Positions 1 through 58,151 of a DNA stretch of 64,000 bases are shown here, piece by piece (positions within the stretch are counted from its first letter, which is position 1; each line of letters opens with the position of its first letter). The stretch is from an uncultured Gammaproteobacteria bacterium. GTDB taxonomy: Bacteria > Pseudomonadota > Gammaproteobacteria > Thiohalobacterales > Thiohalobacteraceae. The stretch is taken from the NCBI GenBank assembly GCA_963696465.1, contig CAVOKC010000005.1:37562-101561 (forward strand), written 5' to 3'. A program made the position numbers and the translations under genes. The notes under the pieces are model-generated. The model searched no databases. It saw nothing but the letters and a program-made list of their open reading frames with translations, and was not told where the DNA came from.

Positions 1-224
1 AAGGTCGATTTGCCTGCGGAAAATGTCCCCAGCACGGAGACCAGCGGCCACCAGGTTACCTGTGTCGCGTAGGATTCATCGCGCCCCAGCAGGCCGGTCA
101 CATAACCGATGCTGGACAACTTGCGGAACCCATCGACCGCCTGTACCAGAAGCGGATTTTCAGTTCGCAGGTGCTGTTCGAGGCTGGTGAGGCGTTTGCG
201 TACACTCTTGTTTGGGACAGCCAT
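1..224 (-). CDS. dynamin-family GTPase, N-terminal fragment (continues past left edge)
   Basis: Reverse-strand ATG at 224 preceded by a GGGAGGAGA Shine-Dalgarno. Translation is MAVPNKSVRKRLTSLEQHLRTENPLLVQAVDGFRKLSSIGYVTGLLGRDESYATQVTWWPLVSVLGTFSAGKST. It ends in a GxxxxGKS/T P-loop in a context typical of bacterial dynamin-like proteins. Absent from the ORF track because it runs off the window. Confidence 0.5.
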   Translation of the reverse strand, partial: MAVPNKSVRKRLTSLEQHLRTENPLLVQAVDGFRKLSSIGYVTGLLGRDESYATQVTWWPLVSVLGTFSAGKST

Positions 225-271
225 CTTGTTATCTCCTCCCTCGCTCGCACGGGCACTGTGATCCCGCGCGA

Positions 272-835
272 TTACCGGGGCACAAAGGCATTCATAAAGC
301 GCATCGGTCCAGTCGAATTCTGGATATTTCGCCCCATCGACCGCGTGTCGTAGCGCATCTCGTAGACGGACACTGACATCATTGCCATAGACTGCGTCAT
401 ACGCTCTATGCTCCCAGACATGGCGATGATCGCCACAGTGTCCTTTTCGATGTCTAAGCTCAGCTTGTCGATATTCCCCGAAATATGATGCACATCCTTG
501 GTCACGTTACTGAAATCTCCAGATACCAGATGCATGTCGTCTGATATCACCACCATCCGCTCTGCTATCACGTCCATACGACCCGTGATGTGACTGACGC
601 TGGCGGTCAACTGGTAAATCAGATAGAACCCATAAGCCGCCAGCAGCACGAAGGCGAACAGCAACGGGTAGACGACCAGCTCCCAACGCCGCGCACTCGC
701 TTCAAAGCTGCGCGCGAATTTATCCATAACAGCGGACATGCCCTGAAACTGATCAGCACCACCACGCCCCTCTTCCGCTGGCCCGCATATTTCAGCAGGT
801 GCCTTATCCTCATCGACGGACGTTGGTTTCGTCAT
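272..835 (-). CDS. membrane-anchored hypothetical protein with heptad-like repeats
   Basis: 187-aa ORF with one central TM segment (WELVVYPLLFAFVLLAAYGFYLIYQL). This is followed by repeated ~12-aa units (ITGRMDVIAERM / VSGDFSNVTKDV / ISGNIDKLSLDI / MSGSIERMTQSM). It lies 47 nt upstream of the GTPase gene on the same strand. No family recognised. Confidence 0.5.
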   Translation of the reverse strand: MTKPTSVDEDKAPAEICGPAEEGRGGADQFQGMSAVMDKFARSFEASARRWELVVYPLLFAFVLLAAYGFYLIYQLTASVSHITGRMDVIAERMVVISDDMHLVSGDFSNVTKDVHHISGNIDKLSLDIEKDTVAIIAMSGSIERMTQSMAMMSVSVYEMRYDTRSMGRNIQNSTGPMRFMNAFVPR

Positions 836-903
836 GTCTTATACAACCTTCTATATAAGATTTCTGGAACTGTGTGCGTCCGTGCGCGTAAGCTCCGCCG
901 GCT

Positions 904-1239
904 TTATCCGCCGCCGACGACACCGGACTCCCAAATAGCCCGTGCGCGCGCTGGATCCAACCCGTCCAGGATCATGAGCATATGTCGCGCATGCGGAATG
1001 TCCCCGCTCTTGGCGAGACGCACCACCGCACCCGCATAGGCTTCAGCCGCTTCGTTCCAGCGCCCCTGCATGTAGTAGAGATTACCAAGTTCACCGAGTG
1101 GCTCCGCGGCAGACGGATCATCTTTGGCAAGTTGCTGATAGAGTTGCTCTGACCGCGGAACATCCTGTGCCCAGAACGCGGCGCGCGCGGCATCCAACGA
1201 GGCGACGCTCTGCATAGCTGGCGCTGCACTGCGCTCCAC
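904..1239 (-). CDS. TPR-repeat protein
   Basis: 111-aa ORF with TPR-like helices (EQLYQQLAKDDPSAAEPLGELGNLYYMQGRWNEAAEAYAGAV). Confidence 0.5.
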   Translation of the reverse strand: MERSAAPAMQSVASLDAARAAFWAQDVPRSEQLYQQLAKDDPSAAEPLGELGNLYYMQGRWNEAAEAYAGAVVRLAKSGDIPHARHMLMILDGLDPARARAIWESGVVGGG

Positions 1240-1259
1240 ATCGGTGTTCGATTGGGGCT

Positions 1260-1649
1260 CTATAGCCGGAGGGGCCGCTGGCGCGGGAGACTGAGCGCCG
1301 CTGGCGCGGGTTCAGGTCTAAACTTCGGCTCGGCCGCGGGCGGCACGAAAGATTCAGATGACTCCTGGTATGGGTTCACTGGAGCCATCGCTGGCCCTGG
1401 TGCTGCCGGCATCTCGGTGACAGGTGCCGGCACGGCCATAACCGGGGGAGGCGCCGGCGTCGCAGTCACCGGCCGTTCTTCCTGGAGTCGTGGCATCTGC
1501 GCCGGTTGCTGTTCAGGTGCCGACGCAGTAAACCAGCTTGGAAATAGCTCAGCACGGAAGTAATAGCCGATGCCAGCCAGTATTGCCAAGGCTATCAGCA
1601 GACTCTTGCTGAGGATGCTTTGTACGATTTTCATGTCGGCAGTCTCCAA
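1260..1649 (-). CDS. membrane-anchored Pro/Ala-rich protein
   Basis: 129-aa ORF with an N-terminal TM anchor (ILSKSLLIALAILAGIGYYF) and a Pro/Ala-rich tail. It is 12 nt downstream of the preceding gene. Confidence 0.45.
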   Translation of the reverse strand: METADMKIVQSILSKSLLIALAILAGIGYYFRAELFPSWFTASAPEQQPAQMPRLQEERPVTATPAPPPVMAVPAPVTEMPAAPGPAMAPVNPYQESSESFVPPAAEPKFRPEPAPAALSLPRQRPLRL

Positions 1650-1661
1650 TGTATTACGTGA

Positions 1662-2469
1662 CTAATGCTGCGCTGGCGTCTTGATTGTTTTGTCAATCGC
1701 CTCGCTGCGTGATTGTGCGGGGATCTCCATACGCCGGTATCCGGCGGGTATGACGAAGAGCCCTTCAGGCTGCACTGCAATCTTGATATTTCGCAATTCT
1801 CGATAACTTCCATCTGTCAGCTCCTCGCGAATTGCAATCTGGAGCTGTGGGTCGTACCACTGAAAGATCCGTTGTGTTTTACCGTCAGGCTGCACGATAG
1901 ATTGCTCCCAGTGCTCGACTTGACGCCCGTTCAGCCACGGTTGGCCACGCAGTTGTAATTCGGTAACGCTGCCGTCAGGCCAGAGTTGTCGCAGTGGCAT
2001 CTGCCGTTGCGGATCGATCCAGTGCAGACTGCGTTCAGTCTTGCCATCGCGCTGTGCGGTCATTTCCCATTTATCGACCGTGATGCCGGACATTGTTTGC
2101 TGTCCGAGATGTTGGCAATGCAGTTCGCGTGCACCCAGACATGGGTTGGTGTCTTCACCCGCACGCCGCTGTACTTTGTTCAGCTCCGCCGCCGCGCCGC
2201 TTTCGATATACGCACGCTGTTGTGGTATCAGGAGGATTGTGCGTCCATGCCCCCAATCCACAATCTCAGCCACCGGCTGCCCTTCCACCAGGTACTCCAT
2301 GCGCACACGCTCGTGACCGACATACATATGCGCCATGCGCATCCGCTCGTCAGAACGAGGTTTGCACTGTCTCGGCGGAAAACTCCATCGCCGGCCCTTG
2401 CGCATGAGGTGCCGTTGCAATCAACGACAACACCATGGCCAGACCAACGGAGGAACGTTTATACGCCAT
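1662..2469 (-). pseudogene. periplasmic LolA-fold/DUF4412-like protein (frameshifted as assembled)
   Basis: ORF 1662..2420 has no signal peptide. An ATG at 2469 in another frame encodes MAYKRSSVGLAMVLSLIATAPHAQG (a Sec signal) and stops after ~40 codons, so one indel near 2350-2400 would join the two. The body (WIDPQRQMPLRQLWPDGS, FQWYDPQLQIAIREELTDGSY) looks like a periplasmic beta-protein. Family assignment is from memory only. Confidence 0.4.
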
Positions 2470-2568
2470 TACCTCTGCCTTACGGATGTCGCCCAACCCC
2501 TGTTGAGCGACACGCTGAGATTAACGAGCGAGACCCGCAGCCTATCTGCGGGCCCCTGCTCGATGTCA

Positions 2569-3101
2569 CTACCGGTTGCCAGCCGGACCCTGCTGCGGCA
2601 CCTGCTGCGGCGCAGCTTGCGGAGGCTGCCCACCATAGCCACCACCGGGATAACCATAGGCGGGCGGTGCACCATAGCCATAGCCACCACCGGGATAACC
2701 ATAGGCGGGCGGTGCACCATAGCCATAGCCCGGACCACCGTAGCCAGGCCCGGACCACCGTAGCCATAACCCGGACCACCGTAACCATAACCCGGGCCAC
2801 CGTAATAGCCGGGACCGTAGCCATAGCCACGACCACCGCCGTATCTGTTATCACCGTAGTAACGATTATTGCCACGACCATAGCCACGACCGCTGCTGCG
2901 ACCGCTTCCGCTAAAGCCCATGTTAAAATCACCGTCGCCGAACATATCGCCAGCGCCGCTGCCGTCACCATAACCATCGTTGTAACTATCGCCCCAACCG
3001 TCACCGTCGTCCCCCCATCCCCATGCCTGGACAGACGAGAGTGGAAGCGCCGTGAGGCTCGCGATGGCCGCTATCAACATTGTCTTTTTGAGTGATGTCA
3101 T
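2569..3101 (-). pseudogene. secreted Gly/Tyr-rich low-complexity protein (one frame break as assembled)
   Basis: Reverse ATG at 3101 gives the signal peptide MTSLKKTMLIAAIASLTALPLSSVQA. An acidic WGWGDDGDGWGD stretch follows, then GYGYGGPGY repeats. The frame breaks near 2745-2750. The alternate frame continues GYGYGAPPAYGYPGG x2 ... QQGPAGNR to a TAG at 2569-2571. Confidence 0.6.
2641..2730. repeat. perfect 45-bp tandem duplication inside the Gly/Tyr-rich gene
   Basis: accaccgggataaccataggcgggcggtgcaccatagccatagcc occurs twice back to back (2641-2685 and 2686-2730). Each copy encodes GYGYGAPPAYGYPGG. Confidence 0.9.
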
Positions 3102-3294
3102 TGCTTGATCCTCTGATCTAATTGAATTTGACCGACACAACAATCGTGTCACCTTCGCCCTCGGTTGTGCCTCGTAACAGTGAGCGGAGGGAAAGCACTC
3201 ACTGTTGGCTGATTCCTATGCGCCTTCGCGATCCATGCCGAACCTCGAAGCGCTTGTTACACCTTCATCTCGATGACTAAACCTCAGGCCATTT

Positions 3295-4190
3295 TCAGCG
3301 GATGATCGGCCATGCCGCGCCCGGATAAGCACCAAACGGCATTCCTCCCCAACCACCCGGCCACGCGCCGGTGCCTGGATACCCTCCACCGAAGCCGCCT
3401 GGCCAACCACCCGGATACTGGCTTGGGTATTGGCCCGGGTATGGCTGGTACTGGCCCGGATACGCGCCGGCAACAGCACCGCCGTAATACGGCGTATTCG
3501 GTACTGGTCGCTGACTGCTACCGTAAACTTGGTCATACGGTGTCACCACGGGCGGTGATGTAGCAGTGGCACGCGTTTCGCCCTCAAGTGGGCGGTAGCG
3601 CCCAGCCGTCGTGTTACCTCCTTGAGCAGCCGAACCCAAAGGTTGGCTGGTAGCCCAACTGTTCGCGTAATGATCTCGCCGTTCCTGCACGAGCCAAGGG
3701 TTGTCGCTCTGACTCGGGGCTGGCACCGGTGTCGCCGCGCCATACTGCGGGGCTGTTTGCGAATACACCTGTGGTTGCTGATATGTCTGTGGCTGCGAAT
3801 ACACCTGTGGTTGCTGATATGTCTGTGGCTGCTGATACGTCTGGGCTGCTGATACGTCTGTGGCTGCTGATACACCTGCGGCTGCTGATACACCTGTGGC
3901 TGCTGATACACCTGCGGCTGCTGGTACACCTGCGGCTGCTGGTACATCTGCGGCTGCTGTGGCGCACCCCAAGGTGCCTGTTGTTGGATGCCCTGCACAT
4001 ACCCCGGCATGGGGTATGTGCCTATTGGCAGCGTTGGCTGCTGTTGCCCCGTTATCACCTGTGCCGGAGCGGCGCCATTGCCATCGCCGCAGCCACTGAT
4101 CATCAGCACCAAGCCCACCGCTGCTAAGCGGCCGCACACAACACTGCGATTGCACTGCAGGGTTTGTGTCAGTGGCACAGACATGCGCAT
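3295..4190 (-). pseudogene. lipoprotein with QQPQ(V/T)Y tandem repeats and a Gly/Pro/Tyr-rich C-terminus (one frame break)
   Basis: ORF 3543..4190 starts MRMSVPLTQ...AAVGLVLMISGC (lipobox ISGC) and runs into (QQPQVY)n. ORF 3295..4329 carries the continuation ...YQQPQTYQQPQVYSQ...YPGQYQPYPGQYPSQYPGGWPGGFGGGYPGTGAWPGGWGG. The switch coincides with a 17-nt unit (gtctgggctg instead of gtctgtggctg, ~3843) in an otherwise 18-nt periodic array. Confidence 0.6.
3761..3960. repeat. 18-bp periodic coding repeat array (QQPQVY/QQPQTY), including a perfect 36-bp duplication
   Basis: gaatacacctgtggttgctgatatgtctgtggctgc occurs at 3761-3796 and again at 3797-3832. It is followed by about nine further ctgatacacctg(c/t)ggctg-type units. 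Confidence 0.85.
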
Positions 4191-4199
4191 CCACCCCGG

Positions 4200-5171
4200 C
4201 TATTGTCCGTAGCCCGGCGGCGGTCCGTAACCCGGCGGCGGCCCGTAGCCCGGCGGCGGTCCATAACCCGGCGGCGGTCCATAGGCATAGCCACCCGGCG
4301 GCGGATACGCACCCTGATTGGGATGCCATTGCGGACCGGGCGGCGTATAGGCAGGCTGGTCATTGGCCGGCGGTGCCGTGATAACCGGCGCCGGCGCCTG
4401 CGCCTGCGGATACGGCTGTCCGTACTGAGGTGCGTAACGTTGGCGTTCTGCTTCCATGGCTTGATCACGCATACGCATCTCTTCATTACGCGCCTGCATT
4501 TCTTTCTGCAGTTCAGCTTTGCGCTGTTCCATGTCCTTCTGGATTTGCGCCTCGCGTTCCTGCAATTCTTTGTACAGCTGATCCTGCTCTGCCTTGTTAT
4601 CTGGCCACGCGGAGGAACCACGTTGCTGCCAGGCCTGATCGTGCCGTGCCTGTGCTTCCTGCATGCGCTTATCCATTTCGGCTCGCCGCTTGGCCTGCTC
4701 GTTCATGAAATCCTCACGGGTGATACCGCCCCGACGTTGGTATCTGTCCGACGGAGACGGCGGCGTCCATGCCGGTGCCGGACTGCCCGTTTGCGGCTGC
4801 GTGCCTGCCGATTGGGCTGGTGCCGATTGTTCTGGTGCGGGTGGTTGCATGCGTCCAGCGTCGAGTTCGGAATCCGGACGGAAACTGGGCGGCGGCATCT
4901 GGCCATAGGCTGGTGGATAACCCGGAGCTACCGCTGCAGGTGCGTACGGACCTGGCGGTGGCGGCACACTGTTCGGCTGTGGAGCATAGGTGTTGCCACC
5001 GGGCGGCTGCCCCCAGCCTGGCGTGGCGGTTGGTGCCTGAGCCGGTGCCACTTCCTGAGCGGAAGCAGTACCGACACAGAGCAGCGATACGATCAGCAAC
5101 CCGATACGTTTATATGCGAATCGGCCTGCCTGGTTGTGCATTGCACGGGTTGTTTTGAATTCATGTTCCAT
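4200..5171 (-). CDS. secreted Pro-rich protein with central charged coiled-coil and C-terminal (GPPPGY)4
   Basis: 323-aa ORF. A probable signal peptide begins at the internal Met (MHNQAGRFAYKRIGLLIVSLLCVGTASA). Pro-rich flanks surround a central E/K/Q/R helix (AKRRAEMDKRMQEAQARHDQ...ELQEREAQIQKDMEQRKAELQKEMQARNEEMRMRDQAMEAERQR). The C-terminus is GPPPGYGPPPGYGPPPGYGPPPGYGQ. It lies 9 nt upstream of the next gene. Confidence 0.6.
   Translation of the reverse strand: MEHEFKTTRAMHNQAGRFAYKRIGLLIVSLLCVGTASAQEVAPAQAPTATPGWGQPPGGNTYAPQPNSVPPPPGPYAPAAVAPGYPPAYGQMPPPSFRPDSELDAGRMQPPAPEQSAPAQSAGTQPQTGSPAPAWTPPSPSDRYQRRGGITREDFMNEQAKRRAEMDKRMQEAQARHDQAWQQRGSSAWPDNKAEQDQLYKELQEREAQIQKDMEQRKAELQKEMQARNEEMRMRDQAMEAERQRYAPQYGQPYPQAQAPAPVITAPPANDQPAYTPPGPQWHPNQGAYPPPGGYAYGPPPGYGPPPGYGPPPGYGPPPGYGQ
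4213..4284. repeat. 18-bp x4 tandem coding repeat (GPPPGY)
   Basis: Four consecutive cccggcggcgg(t/c)cc(g/a)ta(a/g) units. Confidence 0.85.
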
Positions 5172-5276
5172 TGTTTATCCTCCAACTCGACGGCGGTTAC
5201 CGTTTAAACTCACGTAGGCACAGTTGCTCGATTCACCCTGCACCCTGAAGCACTTACTACATCCTCATGACGACAG

Positions 5277-8200
5277 TTAATTCATCGCCGTCTTTGGCGT
5301 TTCTTCCTGCAGCTCGGCGAACTTATGTGGATGGAAATGTTTCTCCGCGCTGATGCAACCAAGCGGAATCACCAACATTGTGAACAGCGTGGCGAAACCG
5401 GTACCGAACAACACGCTCGCGGCCATGCCTTGGAAAATCGGGTCAGAGAGAATGGTCGAGGCACCCGCGATGTTGGTAAGCGAGGTGATCAGGATAGGAC
5501 GCAGACGTGTGCGGCCCGCGTTGATCGCAGCTTCGCGGATCGGTGTACCGGCCTCGACTTCGATCTTGACGAATTCGACGAGCAGAATCGAGTTGCGCAC
5601 AATGATGCCGGCCATGGCGATGAAGCCAATCATCGACGTTGCGGTGAATTGCGCACCTATAATCAGATGTCCGGGAATAATACCGATCAGCGTCAGCGGA
5701 ATGGGCGCCATGATCAGTCCCGCAAGTGTGTAGTTGCGGAACTCGAGGACGATCAGACCGTAGATCAGTACCAGCGCGGCCATGAACGCAAGACCCATGT
5801 CGCGGAAGGTTTCGTAGGTCACGGTCCATTCACCGGTCCATTCGAAGCCACTCTTTTGATCGGTGTCCGGCGGACCAATCAGCCCCGCAGGCATGCCGGT
5901 TATCTTCACGCCATCAGGCGTGGTGTAGTTTTCCAGGAGATCCTCAACGCCATACATACCGTAGATGGGGGCGCCAAGAACGCCTTCCATCTCACCGGTA
6001 ACGTATTCCATCGGCCGCAAGTCGACATGGAAGATGTAAGGATCTTCCGGTACCTGGACGAAATTACCCAATTCACCCAAAGGGATGGTTTGACCATCGG
6101 CGGTCGCAATTGGCAGATTATACAAACGACCCAGCTGTGAGCGAACGGCGAGCGGGGCCTGCAAAACGATGTAGGTCGGCTCCAAGGGAGCAGCACGCTT
6201 CACGTCACCCAGCTTGTGCCCTCCCATCGCCATGGACAGATTGCGGTTGATCGCGTCTGCGTTAATTCCACGCCGAGTGGCTTTCTCCATGTCAATTTCG
6301 AAACGCCAATAGCTGAAGGGGTCTGCCATATAGTTGTCGACATCGACCAGATTTTCGACCTGCTCGAACATGGCGGTCATATCGCGAGCCACTTGGCGTC
6401 GGGTCGCTGCATCCGGGCCGTAGATTTCGGCGGCAACGGTCTGCAATACCGGCGGGCCCGGAGGCATTTCCACAATCTGGATCTTGGCGCCAAGCTGTTT
6501 GGCATACGGCGTGAGCAGTTTGCGCGCGGCCACCGAAAGCTCATGGCTGCTACGCTCACGATCATCCTTATCCGTGAGCATTACCTGTATATCCGCATGC
6601 CAAGGCCGCTGACGTAAATAGTAATGACGCACCAGACCATTGAAATTGTACGGCGAGGCCGTGCCGACATAACTCTGCAATGAAGTCACTTCAGGGATGG
6701 TCTGCAATTGTGCTGCGAGCACTTGCGCAACATTCGCCGTGGTCGGCAGCGCAGTCCCTTCCGGCATATTGATGAGGACATTGAATTCTGGCTTGTTATC
6801 GAACGGCAACATCTTCACCGCAACGGTTTTGGTGTAGAACAGAACGCAGGAGGCTGCCGTGAGCGCAATGACACCGACCAGAAAGATCACACCCAGCGTC
6901 CGATGCTCAATCAGTGGTCTGATGATGGGGTCGTAGTAGCGGCTGATTATTCTGTGTGTGGCCTTCTCGCGTTCTTCAGATTTTCGGAATGCCTCGACGT
7001 TGGCGGGCCGCACTCGCATGGTGAACCAAGGTGTGAATATAAAAGCGGCGACCAGCGAAAAAAACATCGCGCATGCGCCGAGCACCGGTATAGGCCGCAT
7101 ATACGGCCCCATCAAACCACTGACAAAACCCATCGGCAGCAGTGCGGAGATAATGGTCAAGGTGGCAAGAATGGTCGGATTGCCAACCTCGCGCACCGCA
7201 TCGATTGCAACAGTCAGTGTGGTTTTGCCTGCCAACATCCAGCGACGGAAGATGTTTTCCACCACCACCGTCGCGTCGTCAACCAAGATACCGATGGAAA
7301 AGATCAGCGCGAACAGACTGACGCGGTCAATGGTGTATTCAAGCGCCCAGGCGGATGCAATGGTGATCAGAATCACCACCGGGATCACGGTGATCACCAC
7401 GAAGGCCGCACGGAATCCCAGTCCAATCATGCACAGGATAGACACGGCAACGGCCGCCTCGAACAATGCCGTCAGCAATTCGTTGACTTTTGTATTAGCA
7501 GTCTTGCCGTAATCGCGGGTGACGCTGACATGCACATTGTCAGGGATGAGATGGCCTTTGAGCTGTTCCAGCTTGGCGAGAATGTCATTGGCAACAGTAA
7601 CGCCGTTAGAGCCCTCTTTCTTCGCCAGCGCGATCGTTACCGCGGGGAATCCCTGTGACGCATACTTCAGCTGCTCGTCGCCCGCCGGGCCGGAGTAGTA
7701 GGTCACCATGCGCTCGGGTTCGGCAGGCCCGTGAAACACCGACGCCACATCGCGCAGGTAGACGGGGCTTCCCTGGTAGCTACCGATTACCAGTCGGGAA
7801 AGATCCTGGGCGTTGCGCAGAAAGGCGCCGCTGTACACCGAAAAACTGGTGTTACTGGATTCGACTGACCCGACTGGCATCTCGGAATTAGCCGAACTGA
7901 TTGTTTGTGCCAGTTGATCCAGGGTGACGCCATACCCGGTAAGGCGTTCCGGCTGTATCTCGACACGAATCTGCTCTTCACGTCCGCCAACCACGAAACC
8001 CTGACCGGTGTTCGGGATTTCCTGTAAACGCTGCAGCACATCCACGCCCAGGGTGCGCAATGCGGCATCATCAACGGATTCTGACCACATAGTCAGCGTG
8101 ACCACGGGTACATCGTCAATACCCTTTGGTTTCACCAGCGGCATCGAGACGCCGGGCGGAATCTTGTCCAGATTGGATTGCAGTTTGTCATGGACCTTCA

Positions 8201-8672
8201 CAATCGAAGGACCCAGCGGTTCACCCACAATAAAGCGAACTGTCACCATGGCCTGACCACGTTCAGTCATGGAGTACACATGCCGAACACCGGGAATGCC
8301 GCTCATGATGCGTTCGAGAGGCTCAGTGACCAGACTTGCAACCTGCTCTGAAGATGCGCCCGGGTACTGGACGAAGATGTCCACCATCGGCACTGAAATC
8401 TGCGGATCTTCCTGGCGCGGCGTAAAGATGAGACCCATCAGACCAATGGCCAGTGCCGCGAAAAACAGCAGTGGCGTGACTGGAGAGTCGATAAAGACAC
8501 AGGCAATCTTGCCGGCGATGCCAAGTGAGCGCGTGCGCTTCAACTCTTCGACATCGTCCGGTAGTTCATCAACGTGAGTGTGCAGCGTTTGGACCGGTTC
8601 CTGAACCGAATCCTGAACTACGGGTTCATGCTCCCGCGGTTGCTCTGTGTTATTGCCGTTGTCTTCAGCCAT
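5277..8672 (-). CDS. RND efflux permease (AcrB/AcrD/AcrF superfamily), intact
   Basis: Uninterrupted 1131-aa ORF with the typical RND layout (TM1, large periplasmic loop, TM2-7, second loop, TM8-12). Conserved-looking stretches include AIDAVREVGNPTILATLTIISALLPMGFVSGLMGPYMRPIPV and GIIVRNSILLVEFV. It has an unusual ~50-aa acidic N-terminal extension. Confidence 0.9.
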   Translation of the reverse strand: MAEDNGNNTEQPREHEPVVQDSVQEPVQTLHTHVDELPDDVEELKRTRSLGIAGKIACVFIDSPVTPLLFFAALAIGLMGLIFTPRQEDPQISVPMVDIFVQYPGASSEQVASLVTEPLERIMSGIPGVRHVYSMTERGQAMVTVRFIVGEPLGPSIVKVHDKLQSNLDKIPPGVSMPLVKPKGIDDVPVVTLTMWSESVDDAALRTLGVDVLQRLQEIPNTGQGFVVGGREEQIRVEIQPERLTGYGVTLDQLAQTISSANSEMPVGSVESSNTSFSVYSGAFLRNAQDLSRLVIGSYQGSPVYLRDVASVFHGPAEPERMVTYYSGPAGDEQLKYASQGFPAVTIALAKKEGSNGVTVANDILAKLEQLKGHLIPDNVHVSVTRDYGKTANTKVNELLTALFEAAVAVSILCMIGLGFRAAFVVITVIPVVILITIASAWALEYTIDRVSLFALIFSIGILVDDATVVVENIFRRWMLAGKTTLTVAIDAVREVGNPTILATLTIISALLPMGFVSGLMGPYMRPIPVLGACAMFFSLVAAFIFTPWFTMRVRPANVEAFRKSEEREKATHRIISRYYDPIIRPLIEHRTLGVIFLVGVIALTAASCVLFYTKTVAVKMLPFDNKPEFNVLINMPEGTALPTTANVAQVLAAQLQTIPEVTSLQSYVGTASPYNFNGLVRHYYLRQRPWHADIQVMLTDKDDRERSSHELSVAARKLLTPYAKQLGAKIQIVEMPPGPPVLQTVAAEIYGPDAATRRQVARDMTAMFEQVENLVDVDNYMADPFSYWRFEIDMEKATRRGINADAINRNLSMAMGGHKLGDVKRAAPLEPTYIVLQAPLAVRSQLGRLYNLPIATADGQTIPLGELGNFVQVPEDPYIFHVDLRPMEYVTGEMEGVLGAPIYGMYGVEDLLENYTTPDGVKITGMPAGLIGPPDTDQKSGFEWTGEWTVTYETFRDMGLAFMAALVLIYGLIVLEFRNYTLAGLIMAPIPLTLIGIIPGHLIIGAQFTATSMIGFIAMAGIIVRNSILLVEFVKIEVEAGTPIREAAINAGRTRLRPILITSLTNIAGASTILSDPIFQGMAASVLFGTGFATLFTMLVIPLGCISAEKHFHPHKFAELQEETPKTAMN

Positions 8673-8693
8673 GTCGATGCAGCGCCTGAGTAA

Positions 8694-9893
8694 TCAGTTC
8701 GAATCGGTCTGTTGATTAGGGTTTTGCTTCGACCAGCCGGACGCTGTGGACGGTGGCTGGGCAAAGATCCGCTCGCCTACCATCAAACCAGAGAGCACTG
8801 AAACCTGCTGGCCAGCGACATATTCGCCCAACCGGATCAGGCGTAATTGCGGCTGATTATTTTCGTCCAGTACATAGACTGCGGGTAATGCGCCGCGCCA
8901 TAGGACAGCGGAGTCTGGAATAACCGGCACTACGGTTGTGGGTGCGGAACTGTCCGGCAACATGACTTCCGCGTACATGCCAGGCCCGCCTGGCACCCCC
9001 TCAGGCAGATCGAATTTGACGGTGACCGTGTGACGAACCTCATCCGCAGAAGGGAAGATCTGCGCCACGCGAGCTTCTACGCGAGTATTGCCGACATCAA
9101 GCCGTGCCGGCACCAGCATGCCCTTGCTGAGACTCGGCATAAGCCTGGATGGCACATCAACACGCACTTGTAGATAGGTCGTATCTGCATACTCCAACAA
9201 CTGCATGCCTGGCTGAACCGTGTCACCGACCTCGATGACCTTCTTGACGATCACGCCATCGAAGGGCGCGAAAGACCGCGCGTCGCGCAACCGTGCATCA
9301 ATCTGATCAATCTGTGAACGTGCGGTAAGTTCGCCACTCTGGGCCTGACTCAGTCGCGAACCGTAACTGTAAAGATCCGCTTGGCGATCTACATAGCGAT
9401 CACCGCCAGCGTTGCCCGGCATCGCATTCGAGAATGGCTGAGTGAACATCTGATCGAACATGGATGGCATGCCCATACCACCGGAGCGATACAGGCTTTT
9501 TCCCTGGGGCGAGATGAGTTCGCGCGAGTACTGCATCTGCGCATTGCCGATCTCCGCCTGTGCATTGCCAAGTTGCGCCAACGCCGCCCGACGCTGCGCC
9601 AGCAGATCGTCGTCATCAATGGCCACCAGAATATCCTGGGCCTTGAAGCGATCCCCTTCGGTACCGGCTATGAATTCGATCCGTCCGGCTATCTGCGCCG
9701 TTAGCGTCACTTGCTTATAGGCAACCACCGAACCACCAATTGTTACCGAAGCACCGGTCTGCGCTGGCTGTACAACAATGACAGCCGACGTATTTACTGC
9801 TGCAGCGGGCGCGCTGATACTCGGCTGTGCCTGACTTGAGGTACAAAACACAGCTGCGATCCCAGCCAGAATTATTTGTGTCGTTTTATTCAT
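8694..9893 (-). CDS. RND periplasmic adaptor (membrane fusion protein, HlyD_D23-like)
   Basis: 399-aa ORF with signal peptide MNKTTQIILAGIAAVFCTSSQA. It contains a lipoyl/alpha-hairpin/beta-barrel pattern (GRIEFIAGTEGDRFKAQDILVAIDDDDLLAQRRAALAQL ... APFDGVIVKKVIEVGDTVQPG). It is 21 nt upstream of the RND permease. Confidence 0.85.
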   Translation of the reverse strand: MNKTTQIILAGIAAVFCTSSQAQPSISAPAAAVNTSAVIVVQPAQTGASVTIGGSVVAYKQVTLTAQIAGRIEFIAGTEGDRFKAQDILVAIDDDDLLAQRRAALAQLGNAQAEIGNAQMQYSRELISPQGKSLYRSGGMGMPSMFDQMFTQPFSNAMPGNAGGDRYVDRQADLYSYGSRLSQAQSGELTARSQIDQIDARLRDARSFAPFDGVIVKKVIEVGDTVQPGMQLLEYADTTYLQVRVDVPSRLMPSLSKGMLVPARLDVGNTRVEARVAQIFPSADEVRHTVTVKFDLPEGVPGGPGMYAEVMLPDSSAPTTVVPVIPDSAVLWRGALPAVYVLDENNQPQLRLIRLGEYVAGQQVSVLSGLMVGERIFAQPPSTASGWSKQNPNQQTDSN

Positions 9894-10182
9894 TTCTACG
9901 CACTCTTCCTAATCTGACTGGATCAACTAGGTAACCCAGCCGGCCCAGAAAAAAATCGGATCTGATCACCTCACCGCAAACAGGCTGATGCAGGTGTACA
10001 GCCATGCCTTCATCGTGCTTAAAAAGCTAGACGGATTGCGTACACAGAGAAAAACGTAATTTGACGATGCCTGAGTTGTAGCGCACACGACACCGCTGCA
10101 ATGCTTGAGCGGGATTGAGCGGTATCTACGACTGGTATGCATGCCACCTAGAGTGCTCCCCACGTACGGCTGATTCGTTATG

Positions 10183-10204
10183 TGCGTTCTGTCAAGAGAA
10201 CGCA
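10183..10204 (-). promoter_or_regulatory. 8-bp-stem inverted repeat just downstream of the sigma-54 promoter (leader hairpin or operator)
   Basis: TGCGTTCT-gtcaag-AGAACGCA lies ~8-30 nt downstream of the predicted start point of the minus-strand transcript. Confidence 0.3.
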
Positions 10205-10222
10205 TAATTTGCTAATTTCAAT

Positions 10223-10238
10223 TGCAGTCTCCATGCCA
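10223..10238 (-). promoter_or_regulatory. sigma-54 (-24/-12) promoter facing the RND operon
   Basis: The minus strand reads CCTGGCATGGAGACTGCAAT. The -24 GG and -12 GC have canonical spacing, and it matches YTGGCACGrNNNTTGCW at all but two weakly conserved positions. It sits ~330 nt upstream of the adaptor ATG (9893), and a sigma-54 activator gene is divergent from it. Confidence 0.6.
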
Positions 10239-10362
10239 GGCTATAACTGACTGTTATTCATATGTTTTTATCATCGTCAAGGCATTGTCATGCAACACTA
10301 ATCCACACGATGTTTCTGTATTAGCTTTATGATTATGCGTAGGTTTAACATTTGGGCATTGC

Positions 10363-10399
10363 GTTGCACTGCCTATGCAACAGGTGCATCAGTTGCAAC
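10363..10399. promoter_or_regulatory. candidate enhancer (UAS) sites: GTTGCA-N7-TGCAAC palindrome plus an adjacent GTTGCAAC
   Basis: GTTGCActgcctaTGCAAC (10363-10381) and gTGCAtcagTTGCAAC (10384-10399) lie 125-175 bp upstream of the -24 element. A further TGCAAC half-site is at 10291-10296. The position is typical for bEBP binding sites. Confidence 0.4.
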
Positions 10400-10642: not shown

Positions 10643-11995
10643 TTGAGCTTCGAGGTACTCATGGACACACTTGCACAGCTGACTCCACTCATAGATGCCG
10701 TTGTATCGCATATCCATGAAGGCGTTATTCTTACCGACAGTCGTGGCGCGATTCTGTATAACAATCAGGCCGCCTGCCGACTACTCGGACTCAGCACTCT
10801 CACGTCAGTACATGAAATCAAGCAGAATACCGGCGTCAATTTACCAAAGTCGATTCTGCGTGCAGCTATTGATGCTGGTGATAAAGATGCCGCAGCACGG
10901 CCGTCGATTGATGCACTGGATTTCGAACAGCGTGTTACCTGCGATGGCATAACTCGCTTTGTTCAATTCAAAACCAGAACACTCTTGCTACCTGGAAGCA
11001 CTAATAAAGTCAGATTAATCGTACTCTCGGATATCTCCGAAAGGCGCAAGCTGGAAGCCGTTTTTCACGACAATATGAACAGCGGGCTAATTACACAGGC
11101 ACCGCAAATGTACGAAATCACCGACACAATCGAACAGGTTGCGCCGACGCGAGCGCCCATTGTTCTGCAAGGCGAATCAGGAACCGGAAAAACGCTATTC
11201 GCGCGCATGATCCATAGCAAAAGTAGCTGCAGTAATGGTCCACTGGTCGAGGTTAACTGTGCGGCGATCCCTGAAACGCTCCTGGAGTCGGAATTATTCG
11301 GTCATGTGAAGGGGGCTTTCACCGGGGCGATCAGCGACCGGGCAGGCCGATTACAGGCTGCGAATGGTGGAACTCTTTTTCTCGACGAAATCAGCGAGAT
11401 TCCTTTGCACCTACAGCCAAAGCTTCTCAAAGCATTAGAGGAACAGTGTTTCCAAATGGTAGGGTCGGACAAGAATATTCAAGTGGATATTCGCATCATC
11501 GCCGCCACAAATCGGAATCTGCGCGATATGGTTGATGCTGGCGAATTTCGTGCAGATCTTTACTATCGCCTTGCCGTCATTCCCGTTTACGTGCCCGCAT
11601 TGCGAGAGCGACTCGGCGATATCCCCCTACTGATACGACACATCTTCGACCGATTGGTGAGCAGAGGCTATCCTGACAATGTACAGTTTTCCGAAGACGT
11701 CATGCGGTTACTGATGGACTATCCTTGGCCCGGAAATGTGCGAGAACTTGCCAATGCCATCGAGCACGGGTTAATCCTTGCTAAGAATGGCCGCATCACT
11801 CCGCTCTGCCTGCCCGCAGATGTACGAAACTACTCTAATTACCCACACGCCGACGAAGACCATTTGGAACAGCAACGGCACGAAATTGAGGATGCCCTGA
11901 TCAAAGCCCAAGGCAACCGCGCTGAAGCCGCACGTGCTTTGGGAATTGATCGCAGCACGCTCTGGCGCCGGATGCAGCGACTTGGGTTAGCATAA
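10643..11995 (+). CDS. sigma-54-dependent Fis-family transcriptional activator (PAS - AAA+ - HTH), copy 1
   Basis: 450-aa ORF with an N-terminal PAS-like ~130 aa. The AAA+ domain carries Walker A GESGTGKT, the GAFTGA sigma-54 contact loop and Walker B LFLDE. The C-terminal HTH is [24 protein letters not shown]. The ORF-track start is TTG 10643; ATG 10661 (MDTLAQL) aligns with the paralog start MDALAHL. Confidence 0.9.
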
Positions 11996-12363: not shown

Positions 12364-12438
12364 GGGCGCGTAGCTCAGCGGGAGAGCACTCCCTTCACAC
12401 GGGAGGGGTCACAGGTTCAATCCCTGTCGCGCCCACCA
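12364..12438 (+). tRNA. tRNA-Val (anticodon CAC)
   Basis: Manual cloverleaf: acceptor GGGCGCG/CGCGCCC, D-arm GCTC-AGCGGGA-GAGC, anticodon arm CTCCC-TTCACAC-GGGAG (CAC at positions 34-36), variable loop GGGTC, T-arm ACAGG-TTCAATC-CCTGT, discriminator A and an encoded CCA. Confidence 0.9.
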
Positions 12439-12839: not shown

Positions 12840-14189
12840 GTGGAGGGGTCGCTGATGGATGCGTTAGCACATCTGACATTACTAATGGGCCTTGTTGTCT
12901 CACGCATACGGGACGGCGTAGTGCTCACAGACAATCTTGGTTCCGTCCTATACATCAATCTTGCTGCCTGCTGTCTCTTGGGAATTCCACGTCCCACTGA
13001 TGCACAACCGCTCGCAATCAATCCCAACGTGCAGCTACCTGGCGCATTGCTGAATGCAACTCGAACTTGCTGCGCCAAGCATTCCGCGCAACTGACGGAT
13101 AACCAGCCCCGATATTTCGTCAAGCAACGCATCGAAAACAACGGCGTTACCCGCTTGGTCAACATAGAGATGACCACCGTAACCTTGCCGGACAGCCCCA
13201 CGCCGATGCATCTCATGCTTGTTTCTGATGCAGATGTCAGGCATCGGCCTGCATTAGAGACTCCGCAGACTGTTGCCAGTGATCTGTTCACTGAAACCCC
13301 GCGCATGCTTGAGATCCGTGAGACGCTTGAGCAGATCGCACCGACGATGGCTTCCGTTCTGTTGCAGGGTGAATCTGGCACGGGCAAGACCTTGCTGGCA
13401 CGCATGATCCATGAGCGCAGTGCCCGGGGAAATGCGCCACTGATTGAAGTCAACTGCGCTGCCATTCCAGATAATCTCCTGGAATCTGAACTCTTCGGGC
13501 ATGTGAAGGGCGCCTTCACCGGCGCCGTCAGCGATCGCCCCGGCCGACTGCAGGCGGCTGACGGTGGCACCTTGTTTCTCGACGAGGTGAGCGAGATCCC
13601 GTTGCAACTACAACCGAAACTGCTGAAGGCGTTGGAAGAAAAATGTTTTCAGATGGTGGGTTCGGATAAAAACACCCGCGTCAATGTGCGCATCATCGCT
13701 GCCAGTAACCGTAACCTGCGTGATTTGGTCGATGCCGGTGCTTTCCGTGCCGATCTGTATTATCGGCTCGCCGTGTTCTCACTCACTGTCCCGGCTCTGC
13801 GGGAACGCCCGGACGACATCCCGGCACTGATTCAGCACCTGCACCGGCGCTTCGTCGAACGCGGTTATCCGGGGCTAAAATATTCCGCCGATGCCATGGC
13901 GATGCTGCTTAACTATCCTTGGCCGGGTAACGTTCGCGAGCTGGCCAATGCCGTGGAGCACGCCATGATCCTGGCGAAGGACGGACTGATATCATCAAAA
14001 TGCCTGCCGGGAGATATCCATGATTATCATCTGCGCAAAAACGCATTCTCGCAGCCTGAACAAAAGCCGCGCTGGGAAATCTCGGAAGCTTTAGAGGCCG
14101 CTAATGGCAATCGCGCGGAGGCTGCGCGCATGCTGGGCATCGACCGCACGACATTGTGGCGGCGTATGCACCGCCTGGGATTGTCGTAG
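12840..14189 (+). CDS. sigma-54-dependent Fis-family transcriptional activator (PAS - AAA+ - HTH), copy 2
   Basis: 449-aa ORF collinear with copy 1 ([43 protein letters not shown]). By eye about three quarters of central-domain residues are identical. The likely start is ATG 12855 (MDALAHL). Confidence 0.9.
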
Positions 14190-15487: not shown

Positions 15488-17284
15488 TTATTTCTGCTTG
15501 TGGCAGAACCCGCAACCCACCGGTGTACCCTCGGCGATAGTGGCAGTCCCGTCGGCGCAGTCGGTGTTGTAGGGGGCGATGCCCTGCGTGTTCTTGCAGG
15601 TCACTACACGGACGGCGGAGGTCTTCGACAGCACGCTGCCGGTCAGCTTGCCGGTCGCCGTGTTCATGTGGCAGATCTTGCAGTCCGCGAATTGACCAGC
15701 GGTGGAGTTCTTGTGGTTGAGGTTCCACCGGTGGTCGTTGACCGGATGCATACCGTGAGGCCCACCCAAACCGAGCGGCATCGTGAGCTCCCCATTCGCG
15801 CCCCGGGTGTGGCAGGCGTCGCATTCCTGAATCTTGCCGTCGTGGCCCTGAATCTGCTGGGCGGTCCGGTTGTCGTTGGCCCGCGGATTCCCCATTGGCC
15901 ATTCCGCGTGGGTGGCGCCGTGGCAACCCTCGCACATTACACCGCCGTGGCCGGTGCTCACCCGGTAGAGCTGCGGGTTACCCGCGCCCGGGTTTGCGAA
16001 CCCATTGAACGAGACAGGGACCGAAGGCTCCGCGAAGCGCTTGTTGGTCGGCACGATAGGCGTCGCCTTGGGGTCGTTGGTGCGGAAAGCCACTCGCAAG
16101 CGGACGTTGTCGCTCACGCCCGCAGTATCCTTCGTGTTCTTCACCACGTTCGCGGTGTTCGCCAAATTGCTCACGGCGTCGCCGCTGTGGCAAGAACCAC
16201 AACCCGGCTCGTTGGCCCACGGCACCCGCGGGGTGGCGGGATTGGTGTAGAAGTCGTTAGCCAGGATGAATGCGCCCGGGTTGGTTGGAGAAACATTCTT
16301 GGTGAAGTCGTCACCCACGTGCTTCATGTTCCCGTGGCAATCGTTGCAGAGCATTTCTCCGGTACGCATGGCCCCGCGCAAGCACTTGGTGGTCTTGCCC
16401 GGGTGACATTGATAACAGGTTGCATCGAGCGCTGCCACACGGGCGGCCTGGTTGGTGACCATGCCGTTCGCGTCCTGGGTCGGCAGCGGCATGTCGGGGA
16501 AGAGCAAGCTGTTTGCATTATATCCCGTATCGCCTGGTGAGCGCCCGTTCGTGTCGAGGTTGCCATGGTGCCAGTGCATCACGCGGGAGTTGCTTTGGTG
16601 TGCGACCTGGTTGCGGCCGTTGGCGATGGTGCCCACAGGACCGGCCAGTGGTCCTAATTGCGCCAAGTCCAGGGCCGGGGTGTAGTGACAGACCTGGCAG
16701 ACCACCGGCTTTTCCTGAACCAGCGCCTTGTTAATGAGACAGTTGGTGTTGCCGTTCGGGCTGGACGAGCTGATCACGCACGCAGTCGACTGACCTGTGG
16801 GGCCGACATACTTCGACCCGTGCCTCAGGTCATGCAGACGCAGGACATTGATGTCAGTCGCGTACTCGATGCTGACGTTCTCAGGTACGTCGACTGAAGC
16901 CGGGTCCGCCAACTGGTTTACCACCGGCAGGCCAGCGCTTGTCAGGCCAGCCGTTGCCACGCCCTTGGTCGGGCTGTCCGGGACATCCAATGCCGCGGCG
17001 TGACAGTTTTTACAGCTCGCCTCGCCGGAAATGGGGAGCACAGTGTCCAACGTCGCCAGAAGGGTGCCGCCGGTCTTCGTTTTCGCCTGCACCCGCACCA
17101 GCGGGTAGGCGTTCTCGCGACCTTTGTTGTCCCAGGCCGCATAGGGCACACCGGCCGCCTCGAACCATTTGAGATTCTGTGCCACGTAGCCAAATGGGAA
17201 GTTCACGAAGAACGGCTTGACCTCGTAATACTCGTTGGCAGATTGGGGCACGTTGGCATTGTAGGGGCTGGTTATACCAGGCAT
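15488..17284 (-). CDS. multihaem c-type cytochrome, nine CXXCH (intact C-terminal two thirds of a larger gene)
   Basis: The 598-aa ORF contains CKNCH, CQVCH, CYQCH, CNDCH, CGSCH, CEGCH, CDACH, CKICH and CGFCH. It has no signal peptide of its own. Its coding sequence continues upstream in shifted frames (see next feature). Confidence 0.85.
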   Translation of the reverse strand: MPGITSPYNANVPQSANEYYEVKPFFVNFPFGYVAQNLKWFEAAGVPYAAWDNKGRENAYPLVRVQAKTKTGGTLLATLDTVLPISGEASCKNCHAAALDVPDSPTKGVATAGLTSAGLPVVNQLADPASVDVPENVSIEYATDINVLRLHDLRHGSKYVGPTGQSTACVISSSSPNGNTNCLINKALVQEKPVVCQVCHYTPALDLAQLGPLAGPVGTIANGRNQVAHQSNSRVMHWHHGNLDTNGRSPGDTGYNANSLLFPDMPLPTQDANGMVTNQAARVAALDATCYQCHPGKTTKCLRGAMRTGEMLCNDCHGNMKHVGDDFTKNVSPTNPGAFILANDFYTNPATPRVPWANEPGCGSCHSGDAVSNLANTANVVKNTKDTAGVSDNVRLRVAFRTNDPKATPIVPTNKRFAEPSVPVSFNGFANPGAGNPQLYRVSTGHGGVMCEGCHGATHAEWPMGNPRANDNRTAQQIQGHDGKIQECDACHTRGANGELTMPLGLGGPHGMHPVNDHRWNLNHKNSTAGQFADCKICHMNTATGKLTGSVLSKTSAVRVVTCKNTQGIAPYNTDCADGTATIAEGTPVGCGFCHKQK

Positions 17285-28986: not shown

Positions 28987-30272
<1,286 letters not shown>

Positions 30273-55236: not shown

Positions 55237-58151
<2,915 letters not shown>

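Follow-up and report, generated by a model that had tools for sequence, protein, structure and literature searches.

Sulfur globules are periplasmic inclusions with a protein coat; the interaction and assembly of the coat proteins are still described as open, and much further work on globule protein interactions is called for (PMC10386293). Among these proteins SgpA and SgpB (CV1 and CV2; Pfam family PF17228) combine a Sec signal peptide and a characteristic core with Gly/Tyr repeats. The sgp genes of Allochromatium vinosum are described as independent transcription units dispersed through the genome (PMC10386293). A different arrangement is found at one end of a 64,000-nucleotide stretch of DNA (contig CAVOKC010000005.1; hereafter the window) from an uncultured gammaproteobacterium of the Thiohalobacteraceae. 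Here a gene of the sulfur globule protein (SGP) family occupies a fixed slot in a row of minus-strand genes that also encodes a resistance-nodulation-division (RND) pump, a carrier-like periplasmic protein of family DUF4412 and a dynamin-like GTPase (Table 1). The parts come from known families, and what appears to be new is the joining of sgp and RND genes in a conserved cluster of many components. It is well supported that this is a real, widely conserved envelope cluster of sulfur oxidisers containing a sulfur globule protein gene. The region can be read, with a probability of roughly 0.55, as one version (type A below) of a conserved module of sulfur-oxidising Gammaproteobacteria for the building or handling of sulfur globules.

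Three secreted low-complexity proteins (LC1, LC2 and LC3) are encoded between the pump genes and the DUF4412 gene, and the last of them is the globule protein candidate. LC3 shares with SgpA and SgpB the Sec signal peptide, the core AWWG...GDG.GD..GDGDF.M.FSGRG.G.GRGY and the Gly/Tyr repeats. Read from the sequence, its N-terminus MTSLKKTMLIAAIASLTALPLSSVQA, ending before W, is a Sec signal peptide, and GYGYGGPGYGYGG repeats follow, so that both marks of the SGP family, signal peptide and Gly/aromatic-rich repeats, are present. Orthologues in four related loci (cited here by number) score above the PF17228 cutoff of 26.7 bits: 30.4 in L001, 30.9 in L002, 60.2 in L004 and 33.6 in L006. A profile search with the Gly/Tyr proteins of five loci recovers PF17228 members annotated as sulfur globule protein CV1 or sulfur globule family protein. 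Comparison by hhalign of the cluster alignment, with the window protein as its first row, against named SGPs gives a probability of 99.9% (E 3.5e-34). By homology, that is through orthologues 76% identical to it and through the profile comparison, LC3 can be assigned to the SGP family. In 42 loci, from several families, the gene immediately before DUF4412 encodes an SGP.

The cluster was followed through other genomes with tblastn and hidden Markov model searches built from intact copies; one genome per species was scanned, which gave 80 loci. Wherever the contigs extend far enough, adaptor, RND permease, DUF4412 and a DUF948-like protein, mostly with the GTPase, keep their synteny in these 80 species loci, even where DUF4412 identity falls to about 35%. 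For example, the same order recurs on contigs whose LolA-like (DUF4412) homologues are 63, 57, 47 and 43% identical. The shared order runs activator, divergent from adaptor, RND permease, three small proteins without Pfam match, DUF4412, TPR (tetratricopeptide repeat) protein, DUF948-like protein, a Dynamin_N protein of about 505 aa and an MlaC-like protein. A preliminary description of this DNA had left conservation of the neighbourhood as a check on its proposal, and the homologues do co-occur. Three architectures can be told apart. Type A is that of the window. Type B keeps this order and adds a ParA/MipZ-like ATPase behind DUF4412. Type C, the version of the Chromatiaceae, consists of adaptor, an RND permease whose C-terminal tail is rich in Lys, Ala and Pro, a single secreted protein, DUF4412, a ParA-like protein and the DUF948-like protein; the GTPase is usually divergent upstream, and there is no adjacent activator. 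ParA/MipZ domains are found in types B and C.

Nearly all of the named hosts are sulfur-oxidising Gammaproteobacteria. They include Allochromatium, Thiocapsa, Thiocystis, Thiorhodococcus, Chromatium okenii, C. weissei, Thermochromatium, Thiogranum and Thiohalobacter, as well as metagenome-assembled genomes (MAGs) of Ectothiorhodospiraceae, Granulosicoccaceae and Thioalkalispiraceae. Two exceptions, a MAG labelled Bdellovibrio (L064) and a protein from a MAG labelled Sphingobacteriia (P0206), are 52-57% identical to Chromatiaceae sequences and probably come from Chromatiaceae contigs that were binned wrongly. In A. vinosum DSM 180 the core corresponds to Alvin_1759-1764, flanked by rib-nusB genes on one side and by thiL-pgpA on the other. 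The type B MAG L006 (1-1154 and 16795-18259) and A. vinosum (L088; CP001896, 2.005-2.026 Mb) have the cluster in one and the same chromosomal position, ribBA-ribH-nusB / thiL-pgpA, which suggests vertical descent from a common ancestor. In two Chromatiaceae an opposite-strand gene converges on the 3' end of the cluster: L055 11917-13851 (-) in A. warmingii and L088 12121-14163 (-) in A. vinosum. The latter encodes an ExeA-like AAA protein with an OmpA domain (Alvin_1758), and the 644-aa open reading frame (ORF) of A. warmingii is by eye of the same kind.

The sgp gene of the window is flanked on both sides by structured RNA. In contrast to the A. vinosum sgp genes, it has its own structured leader and 3' hairpin. 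The leader, in the 193-nt gap upstream of the gene, consists of two hairpins, the first of 12 bp and the second of 8 bp; the loop of the first, CCCUC, forms a 5-bp pseudoknot with a GAGGG downstream of it. In the alignment 94.1% of the cells are paired and 16 of the 25 pairs have changed on both sides, with two covarying positions in the pseudoknot helix. None of 500 shuffles matched this, and slid controls reached at most 55%. Rfam 15 holds no family matching the leader, which represents a new covarying RNA motif obtained as a by-product of the analysis. Its CCCUCC loop resembles the anti-Shine-Dalgarno sequence.

Directly after the sgp stop codon, the 99-nt gap folds with a minimum free energy of -53.2 kcal/mol (z = -5.65, none of 200 shuffles being as stable). 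Of the two hairpins found there the first is GC-rich with 16 bp. A strong hairpin just past the sgp stop codon is present in nearly all related SGP loci that were folded; the sequences are unrelated, and a U tract often follows. A simple scan for canonical minus-strand terminators between genes finds none in the window; this hairpin escapes the scan owing to its weak U tract in the window. The preliminary description, which saw no intrinsic terminator in the row, has to be corrected on this point, since the hairpin is conserved in place across nearly all related loci. It is likely that these hairpins act as a leaky terminator or as a stabiliser of the mRNA 3' end. The sgp segment would then be stabilised or tuned on its own, with the downstream genes dependent on read-through. 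With a structured leader on one side of sgp and a terminator-like hairpin on the other, it is doubtful that all 10 kb are transcribed as one unit.

The closest described parallel for the control region is found in the sulfide oxidation operons of Cupriavidus and Acinetobacter, where a divergent sigma-54 activator, FisR, is likewise paired with an operon of sulfur metabolism (PMC7315123). In the window TGGCATggagaCTGCA is the only match to a -24 GG / -12 GC promoter; it sits, correctly oriented, between the adaptor gene and the divergent activator. Activator orthologues adjoin the cluster in 24 loci. When the 1 kb before the adaptor gene was scored for the promoter motif, motif and adjacent activator occurred together in 22 loci and were both missing from 34, with two loci having the activator only and one the motif only. 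Uniqueness in the window and co-occurrence across loci bear out the sigma-54 promoter proposed earlier, and sigma-54 control of the cluster in types A and B is well supported. Phylogenetic footprinting adds a candidate binding site for the activator. In L001, L008, L004, L002 and L009 a palindrome similar to that of the window, TTGCA-N5-8-TGCAA, is found 142-181 nt before the promoter; L015, L016, L021, L031 and L058 gave none, so that six of the eleven loci checked, the window included, have it. An AT-rich, IHF-like stretch follows next after the palindrome.

There are clear differences from FisR. The sensory domain of the cluster's activator is a PAS domain without conserved cysteines, and sqr and pdo are replaced among its targets by genes for structural and transport proteins. 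FisR-like persulfide sensing through cysteines was considered and rejected, as no conserved Cys column was found among 18 distinct N-terminal (PAS) domains. The 320-nt leader upstream of the adaptor gene holds no convincing candidate for a conserved small ORF. In type B loci an extra gene of 132 aa without Pfam match (L006 1610-2008) stands between the sigma-54 promoter and the adaptor gene.

The other two secreted proteins, LC1 and LC2, are less easily named. LC1 has no match in Pfam or NCBIfam. For LC2, a lipoprotein, tblastn places the intact L001 orthologue in two frames of the window. Orthologues of both are conserved in position and composition, in 21 loci each. The two have in common a short motif, [FYW]RP[LDE] with acidic residues after it, which occurs once per protein in 20 of 21 loci for LC1 and likewise in 20 of 21 for LC2. 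The single secreted protein that takes the same slot in Chromatiaceae (e.g., L083 8967-9755) has it once or twice in 29 of 31 loci. In these proteins the motif reaches 3.3-7.0 per 1000 residues against a background of 0.07, an enrichment of 50-100x; it is also seen in some of the anchor/TPR proteins. This FRP motif is a second by-product of the analysis, a new short peptide motif. Through it LC1 and LC2 are linked to the secreted protein of the Chromatiaceae (in A. vinosum Alvin_1762), and all three may bind a common partner. From their context LC1 and LC2 may be further components of the globule coat. The nearest described likeness is SgpD of A. vinosum (Alvin_2515; UniProt D3RP35), a secreted and very hydrophilic globule protein with predicted helices and regularly spaced prolines, which has been localised with a fluorescent (mCherry) fusion (PMC10386293). 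LC1 is similarly secreted and combines predicted helices with regular prolines, and sgpD, like the LC1 gene, adjoins a gene for a hydrophobe/amphiphile exporter (PMC10386293). The cluster is not, however, the exporter beside sgpD, as its A. vinosum copy, Alvin_1759-1764, is far from Alvin_2515.

Table 1. Features of the gene cluster and its control region, in order along the window
Feature	Position	Strand	Basis
Dynamin-like GTPase, first 74 codons to P-loop GTFSAGKST; remainder past window edge	1..224	-	translation
DUF948-like single-pass membrane protein, Met-rich helical-repeat domain	272..835	-	weak DUF948 match below cutoff
Inner-membrane-anchored protein with Pro-rich linker and TPR; split by frame change at ~1290	904..1649	-	tblastn, orthologues
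DUF4412 periplasmic protein, LolA-superfamily fold, P-C-x7-C motif; frame change at ~2380	1662..2469	-	AlphaFold model, Foldseek
Two strong hairpins directly after sgp stop codon	2525-2562 and 2471-2521	-	folding against shuffles
LC3, SGP-family secreted Gly/Tyr-repeat protein; frame change at ~2750	2569..3101	-	orthologue PF17228 scores, profile search, hhalign
Structured RNA leader upstream of sgp	3133..3207	-	alignment of 11 loci, RNAalifold, pair counts
LC2, lipoprotein (lipobox ISGC), QQPQVY repeats, YRPLEGE motif, Gly/Tyr/Trp/Pro tail; frame change at ~3850	3295..4190	-	three-frame translation
LC1, secreted Pro-rich protein, central Q/E/R-rich helical segment, PPPGYG tail, one FRPD motif	4200..5171	-	translation
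RND permease, 1131 aa, HAE-1-like but divergent	5277..8672	-	Pfam ACR_tran 482 bits
RND periplasmic adaptor, 399 aa	8694..9893	-	TIGR01730 147.8 bits (cutoff 94.9); Pfam HlyD_D23, HlyD_3
Sigma-54 promoter, -24 GG / -12 GC, TGGCATggagaCTGCA	10223..10238	-	sole match in 64 kb
Candidate activator binding site, palindrome TTGCA-N7-TGCAA	10364..10380	-	~142 nt upstream of promoter; phylogenetic footprinting
Divergent sigma-54 activator: PAS, AAA+ with GAFTGA, Fis-type HTH	10643..11995	+	Pfam Sigma54_activat 229.8 bits, PAS, HTH_8

The minus-strand ORFs of the row span 1-9893, with the activator on the plus strand. The preliminary description counted ten genes. Its ORF positions stand and the number falls to nine, because the "Pro-rich anchor" and the "TPR" protein, taken there as separate, are one gene of 238-277 aa in every related locus with called genes. 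The intergenic gaps it gave (21, 105, 9, 193, 99, 12, 20, 68 and 47 nt) were all recovered after bridging of the gene models. It also ended the cluster at the GTPase, which is indeed present; related loci go on with the rest of the GTPase and then the MlaC-like gene. No protein of the cluster outside the pump is assigned to a specific NCBIfam family. Just past the cluster are a tRNA-Val gene at 12364-12438 (+), a paralogue of the sigma-54 activator at 12840-14189 (+) and a multihaem cytochrome c of 598 aa at 15488-17284 (-). L004 likewise has two neighbouring activators.

The DUF4412 protein is encoded next after LC3. Its AlphaFold model has a confidence score (pLDDT) of 81.5, and a Foldseek search puts LolA3, LolA, LolB, RseB, LprG and EPDR1 on top with probabilities of 0.93-1.0 and template modelling (TM) scores of only 0.2-0.5. 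Nearly all of the top 50 matches in the PDB are members of the LolA superfamily or structurally related to it (MucB and DUF1329 are also among them), the PNGase F-II entries being the exception. The NCBI name of the A. vinosum orthologue is 'LolA-like protein'. Model and structural matches together uphold the LolA-like fold called earlier, at the level of the superfamily only. The DUF4412 protein has the open beta-barrel fold of the LolA/LolB/RseB/LprG superfamily and departs from it in three ways: an invariant P-C-x7-C loop, four invariant Trp residues, and no Lol genes in its context. All 83 distinct orthologues compared have both the motif (NPC...LHC) and the four Trp. The loop that carries the motif is modelled with low confidence. 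A Cys pair in a carrier of hydrophobic ligands, found in sulfur bacteria, invites the idea that it may serve sulfane-sulfur carriage.

The anchor/TPR protein is a single gene in L001, L002 and L004, and tblastn places it in two frames in the window. Its TPR assignment is partly sustained: Pfam TPR matches to the window fragment are all below the gathering score, and the L001 orthologue matches TPR_19 at 28.0 bits against a threshold of 25. The DUF948-like protein was present in 81 of the 88 sources scanned. In this family of 81 orthologues Met makes up 10.2% of the residues and is regularly spaced, and the end, GPMRFMNxFMPW, is conserved.

The GTPase part in the window is 91% identical over 74 residues to its orthologue in L001, a protein of 503 aa that matches Dynamin_N at 48.7 bits (cutoff 27). 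It is through this full-length orthologue only that the earlier dynamin-like call holds. The Dynamin_N domain is shared with bacterial dynamin-like proteins (BDLP, DynA, LeoA) and EHD ATPases, and hydrophobic segments predicted by eye near the C-terminus of the L001 protein add to the likeness. In contrast to BDLP, DynA and LeoA, the cluster GTPase has only about 503 aa and is present in single copy, and its G4 motif is NQID (L001), not N/TKxD. PDB matches to EHD4, EHD2 and BDLP are very weak (E 7e-4 to 0.1). The MlaC-like gene lies downstream of the GTPase and outside the window; its product matches Pfam MlaC at 35 bits in L002 (cutoff 26) but scores only 16.5 bits in L001.

Proteins of the LolA superfamily and the MlaC family are carriers of hydrophobic ligands or lipids, and matches of the cluster to both lead to the main rival explanation. 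The cluster could be a general module for lipid and lipoprotein trafficking in the envelope and for membrane repair under stress, with sgp and the low-complexity genes as passengers kept for co-regulation. A full Mla operon near the cluster in L004 agrees with this, as do the position next to pgpA in A. vinosum and L006 and the retention of the core by Chromatiaceae without an sgp gene. Against it stand the named hosts, nearly all of them sulfur oxidisers, and the fixed slot of an SGP gene across 42 loci of several families. The Chromatiaceae that lack sgp there have a secreted protein sharing the FRP motif in the same slot, and the invariant Cys pair of the carrier is not a LolA feature. On balance the lipid explanation is rather unlikely, though it fares better than the other rivals.

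Pump genes are intact ORFs with a clear assignment, and Pfam and NCBIfam agree with the earlier calls of an RND adaptor and permease. An ACR_tran permease next to an RND adaptor corresponds to an HAE-1 RND pump. The permease is 89% identical to its L001 orthologue, without frameshift. The closest solved relatives are the TriABC-OpmH and MexJK systems of Pseudomonas aeruginosa: for the permease TriC is the best PDB match (6vej_A, E 3.7e-67) and MexK is also among the closest, and for the adaptor they are TriA/TriB and MexJ. The similarity is distant, even this best full-length match included. Against the curated NCBIfam subfamilies the permease stays below every cutoff, the best multidrug RND score being 429.5 bits against a required 1250. 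The gene context is also wholly different from TriABC and MexJK. Moreover, the adaptor of the cluster has a conserved insertion of about 35 residues, rich in Met, Gly, Pro and Phe (GGMGMPxMFDQMFTQP; residues ~131-165), that does not align to solved adaptors and by our reading would sit at the tip of the alpha-hairpin, between its two helices. At the N-terminus of the window permease is an acidic extension, about 55 residues long. In Chromatiaceae (L055 5806-9516, L027, L083, L084, L088) the permease instead carries a Lys/Ala/Pro-rich C-terminal extension that resembles histone H1 and ends in RRGIRLKxDD. It measures about 150-170 residues in A. warmingii and A. vinosum, as judged by length difference, and is absent from the window permease.

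No match to the OEP family of Pfam was found among the cluster genes of loci with gene calls. The preliminary description had remarked on the absence of an outer-membrane factor. TriABC and MexJK operons also have no outer-membrane factor gene, the factor being encoded elsewhere, and with these as the relatives of the pump the missing gene is not odd in itself. It could even be argued that the cluster is an ordinary sigma-54 efflux operon for toxic hydrophobics or metals such as copper, with the outer-membrane factor elsewhere and the neighbours there by chance. The kinship with TriABC and MexJK fits this, the adaptor has a barrel-sandwich match of the CzcB/CusB type, and the 10% Met of the DUF948-like protein recalls Cu(I)-binding Met motifs. 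Chance is hard to reconcile with downstream genes that stay syntenic with the pump through 80 species and three architectures. The RND permease scores far below every curated subfamily cutoff, and the adaptor has its unusual insertion at the tip of the hairpin, the normal docking place of outer-membrane factors. An efflux operon is therefore improbable. The narrower idea of a copper or metal pump, which the Met-rich DUF948-like protein and the CzcB-like adaptor had brought up, was set aside because the permease is nearest to HAE-1 pumps and the context is sulfur-related.

The pump genes apart, the state of the window sequence has to be considered. Four cluster genes, those of the QQPQVY lipoprotein LC2, LC3, the LolA-like protein and the anchor/TPR protein, are not intact ORFs. 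Their frame changes (Table 1) were located by three-frame translation and by tblastn against intact orthologues. The gene models of the preliminary description downstream of the pump hold only when all four are bridged, which it had done silently. Essential or conserved genes elsewhere in the window are broken as well (29121-30269, 33921-35961, 52797-55096, 55237-57352 and others). For example, one ORF holds just the C-terminal part of ligA, ftsK is reduced to its N-terminal part, serS is truncated, and a DUF1631 gene is split into adjacent ORFs. By eye, indels occur in the assembly roughly once per 5 kb. Because ligA, ftsK and serS in the same window are equally broken, the frameshifts are most likely assembly indel errors, and the cluster genes are taken as functional. 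A decaying remnant with the four genes as pseudogenes is highly improbable: the four frame changes do fall inside 2.6 kb, but the damage to those essential genes points to assembly indels, the pump genes are intact, and an intact DUF4412 protein of 268 aa (P0001) exists that is 97% identical to the window copy.

Several observations weigh against a sulfur-globule module. The globule formers studied best are the Chromatiaceae, and they have their sgp genes elsewhere in the genome. One published table lists no marked change of Alvin_1759-1764 between pyrite and elemental sulfur. There are no sox or dsr genes in the 64-kb window, and for this reason sulfur oxidation by the host is deduced from its relatives. 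The window LC3, even when stitched across its frameshift, has no Pfam match, its link to PF17228 passing through the L001 and L002 orthologues at 76% identity. The RND permease and adaptor are nearest to ordinary drug and solvent pumps (TriABC, MexJK), and the TM-scores of the DUF4412 protein are low. Finally, the parts given to pump, LolA-like protein and GTPase in sulfur globules are drawn from gene context only. It is here that the earlier proposal, a regulated builder of an extracytoplasmic layer or inclusion, divides. Its view of the repeat proteins as the material has gained from the SGP family, the sulfur-oxidising hosts and the sigma-54 footprinting; its roles for the three other components are those that context alone suggests.

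If the cluster is nevertheless a module for globule building or handling, its operation may be outlined as follows. The PAS-domain activator would bind the palindrome about 140 nt upstream and turn on the -24/-12 promoter. Three Sec-exported low-complexity proteins would be made, LC1, the lipoprotein LC2 and the SGP-family protein, which are the likely coat material of periplasmic deposits of elemental sulfur (the SGP part by homology). By means of the pseudoknotted leader and 3' hairpin, sgp is probably expressed far more strongly than its neighbours and tuned apart from them. The core would consist of the RND adaptor and permease, the LolA-fold protein with its Cys pair, the Met-rich membrane protein, an anchored TPR protein or ParA-like ATPase, the GTPase and the MlaC-like protein. 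Judged by its context, this core could handle hydrophobic cargo, whether lipid or chains of sulfur, on the way between inner membrane and growing globule. On the same grounds, membrane around the globule may be reshaped, supplied or positioned by the GTPase together with the Met-rich, TPR or ParA and MlaC-like proteins.

A bolder form of the same reading can be offered only tentatively. In it the cluster would encode a dedicated machine for globule biogenesis, in which coat proteins carry a docking motif, a pump with a remodelled tip and a Cys-pair carrier deliver sulfur, the GTPase and ParA shape a membrane pocket, and coat output is tuned by RNA. FRP(L/D) would then be the docking motif common to the coat proteins, and the adaptor tip might dock on something other than an outer-membrane channel.

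To our knowledge, only the coat proteins SgpA-D of sulfur globules are known, and we know of no described machinery for delivering sulfur to the globule or removing it, or for accommodating a micrometre-sized body in the periplasm and at the inner membrane. Within the searchable literature, no paper was found that describes this gene combination or mentions the locus tags Alvin_1759-1764. The cluster puts a coat-protein gene in a fixed slot beside a transporter, a carrier, proteins for membrane remodelling or positioning and a regulator, in a row followed through about 80 species. The core exists in the genetically tractable model A. vinosum, where Alvin_1759-1764 provide testable candidates for globule building. 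If it is true that these genes make up a globule-biogenesis machine, they would represent a new kind of system for an organelle-like inclusion, the periplasmic sulfur globule.

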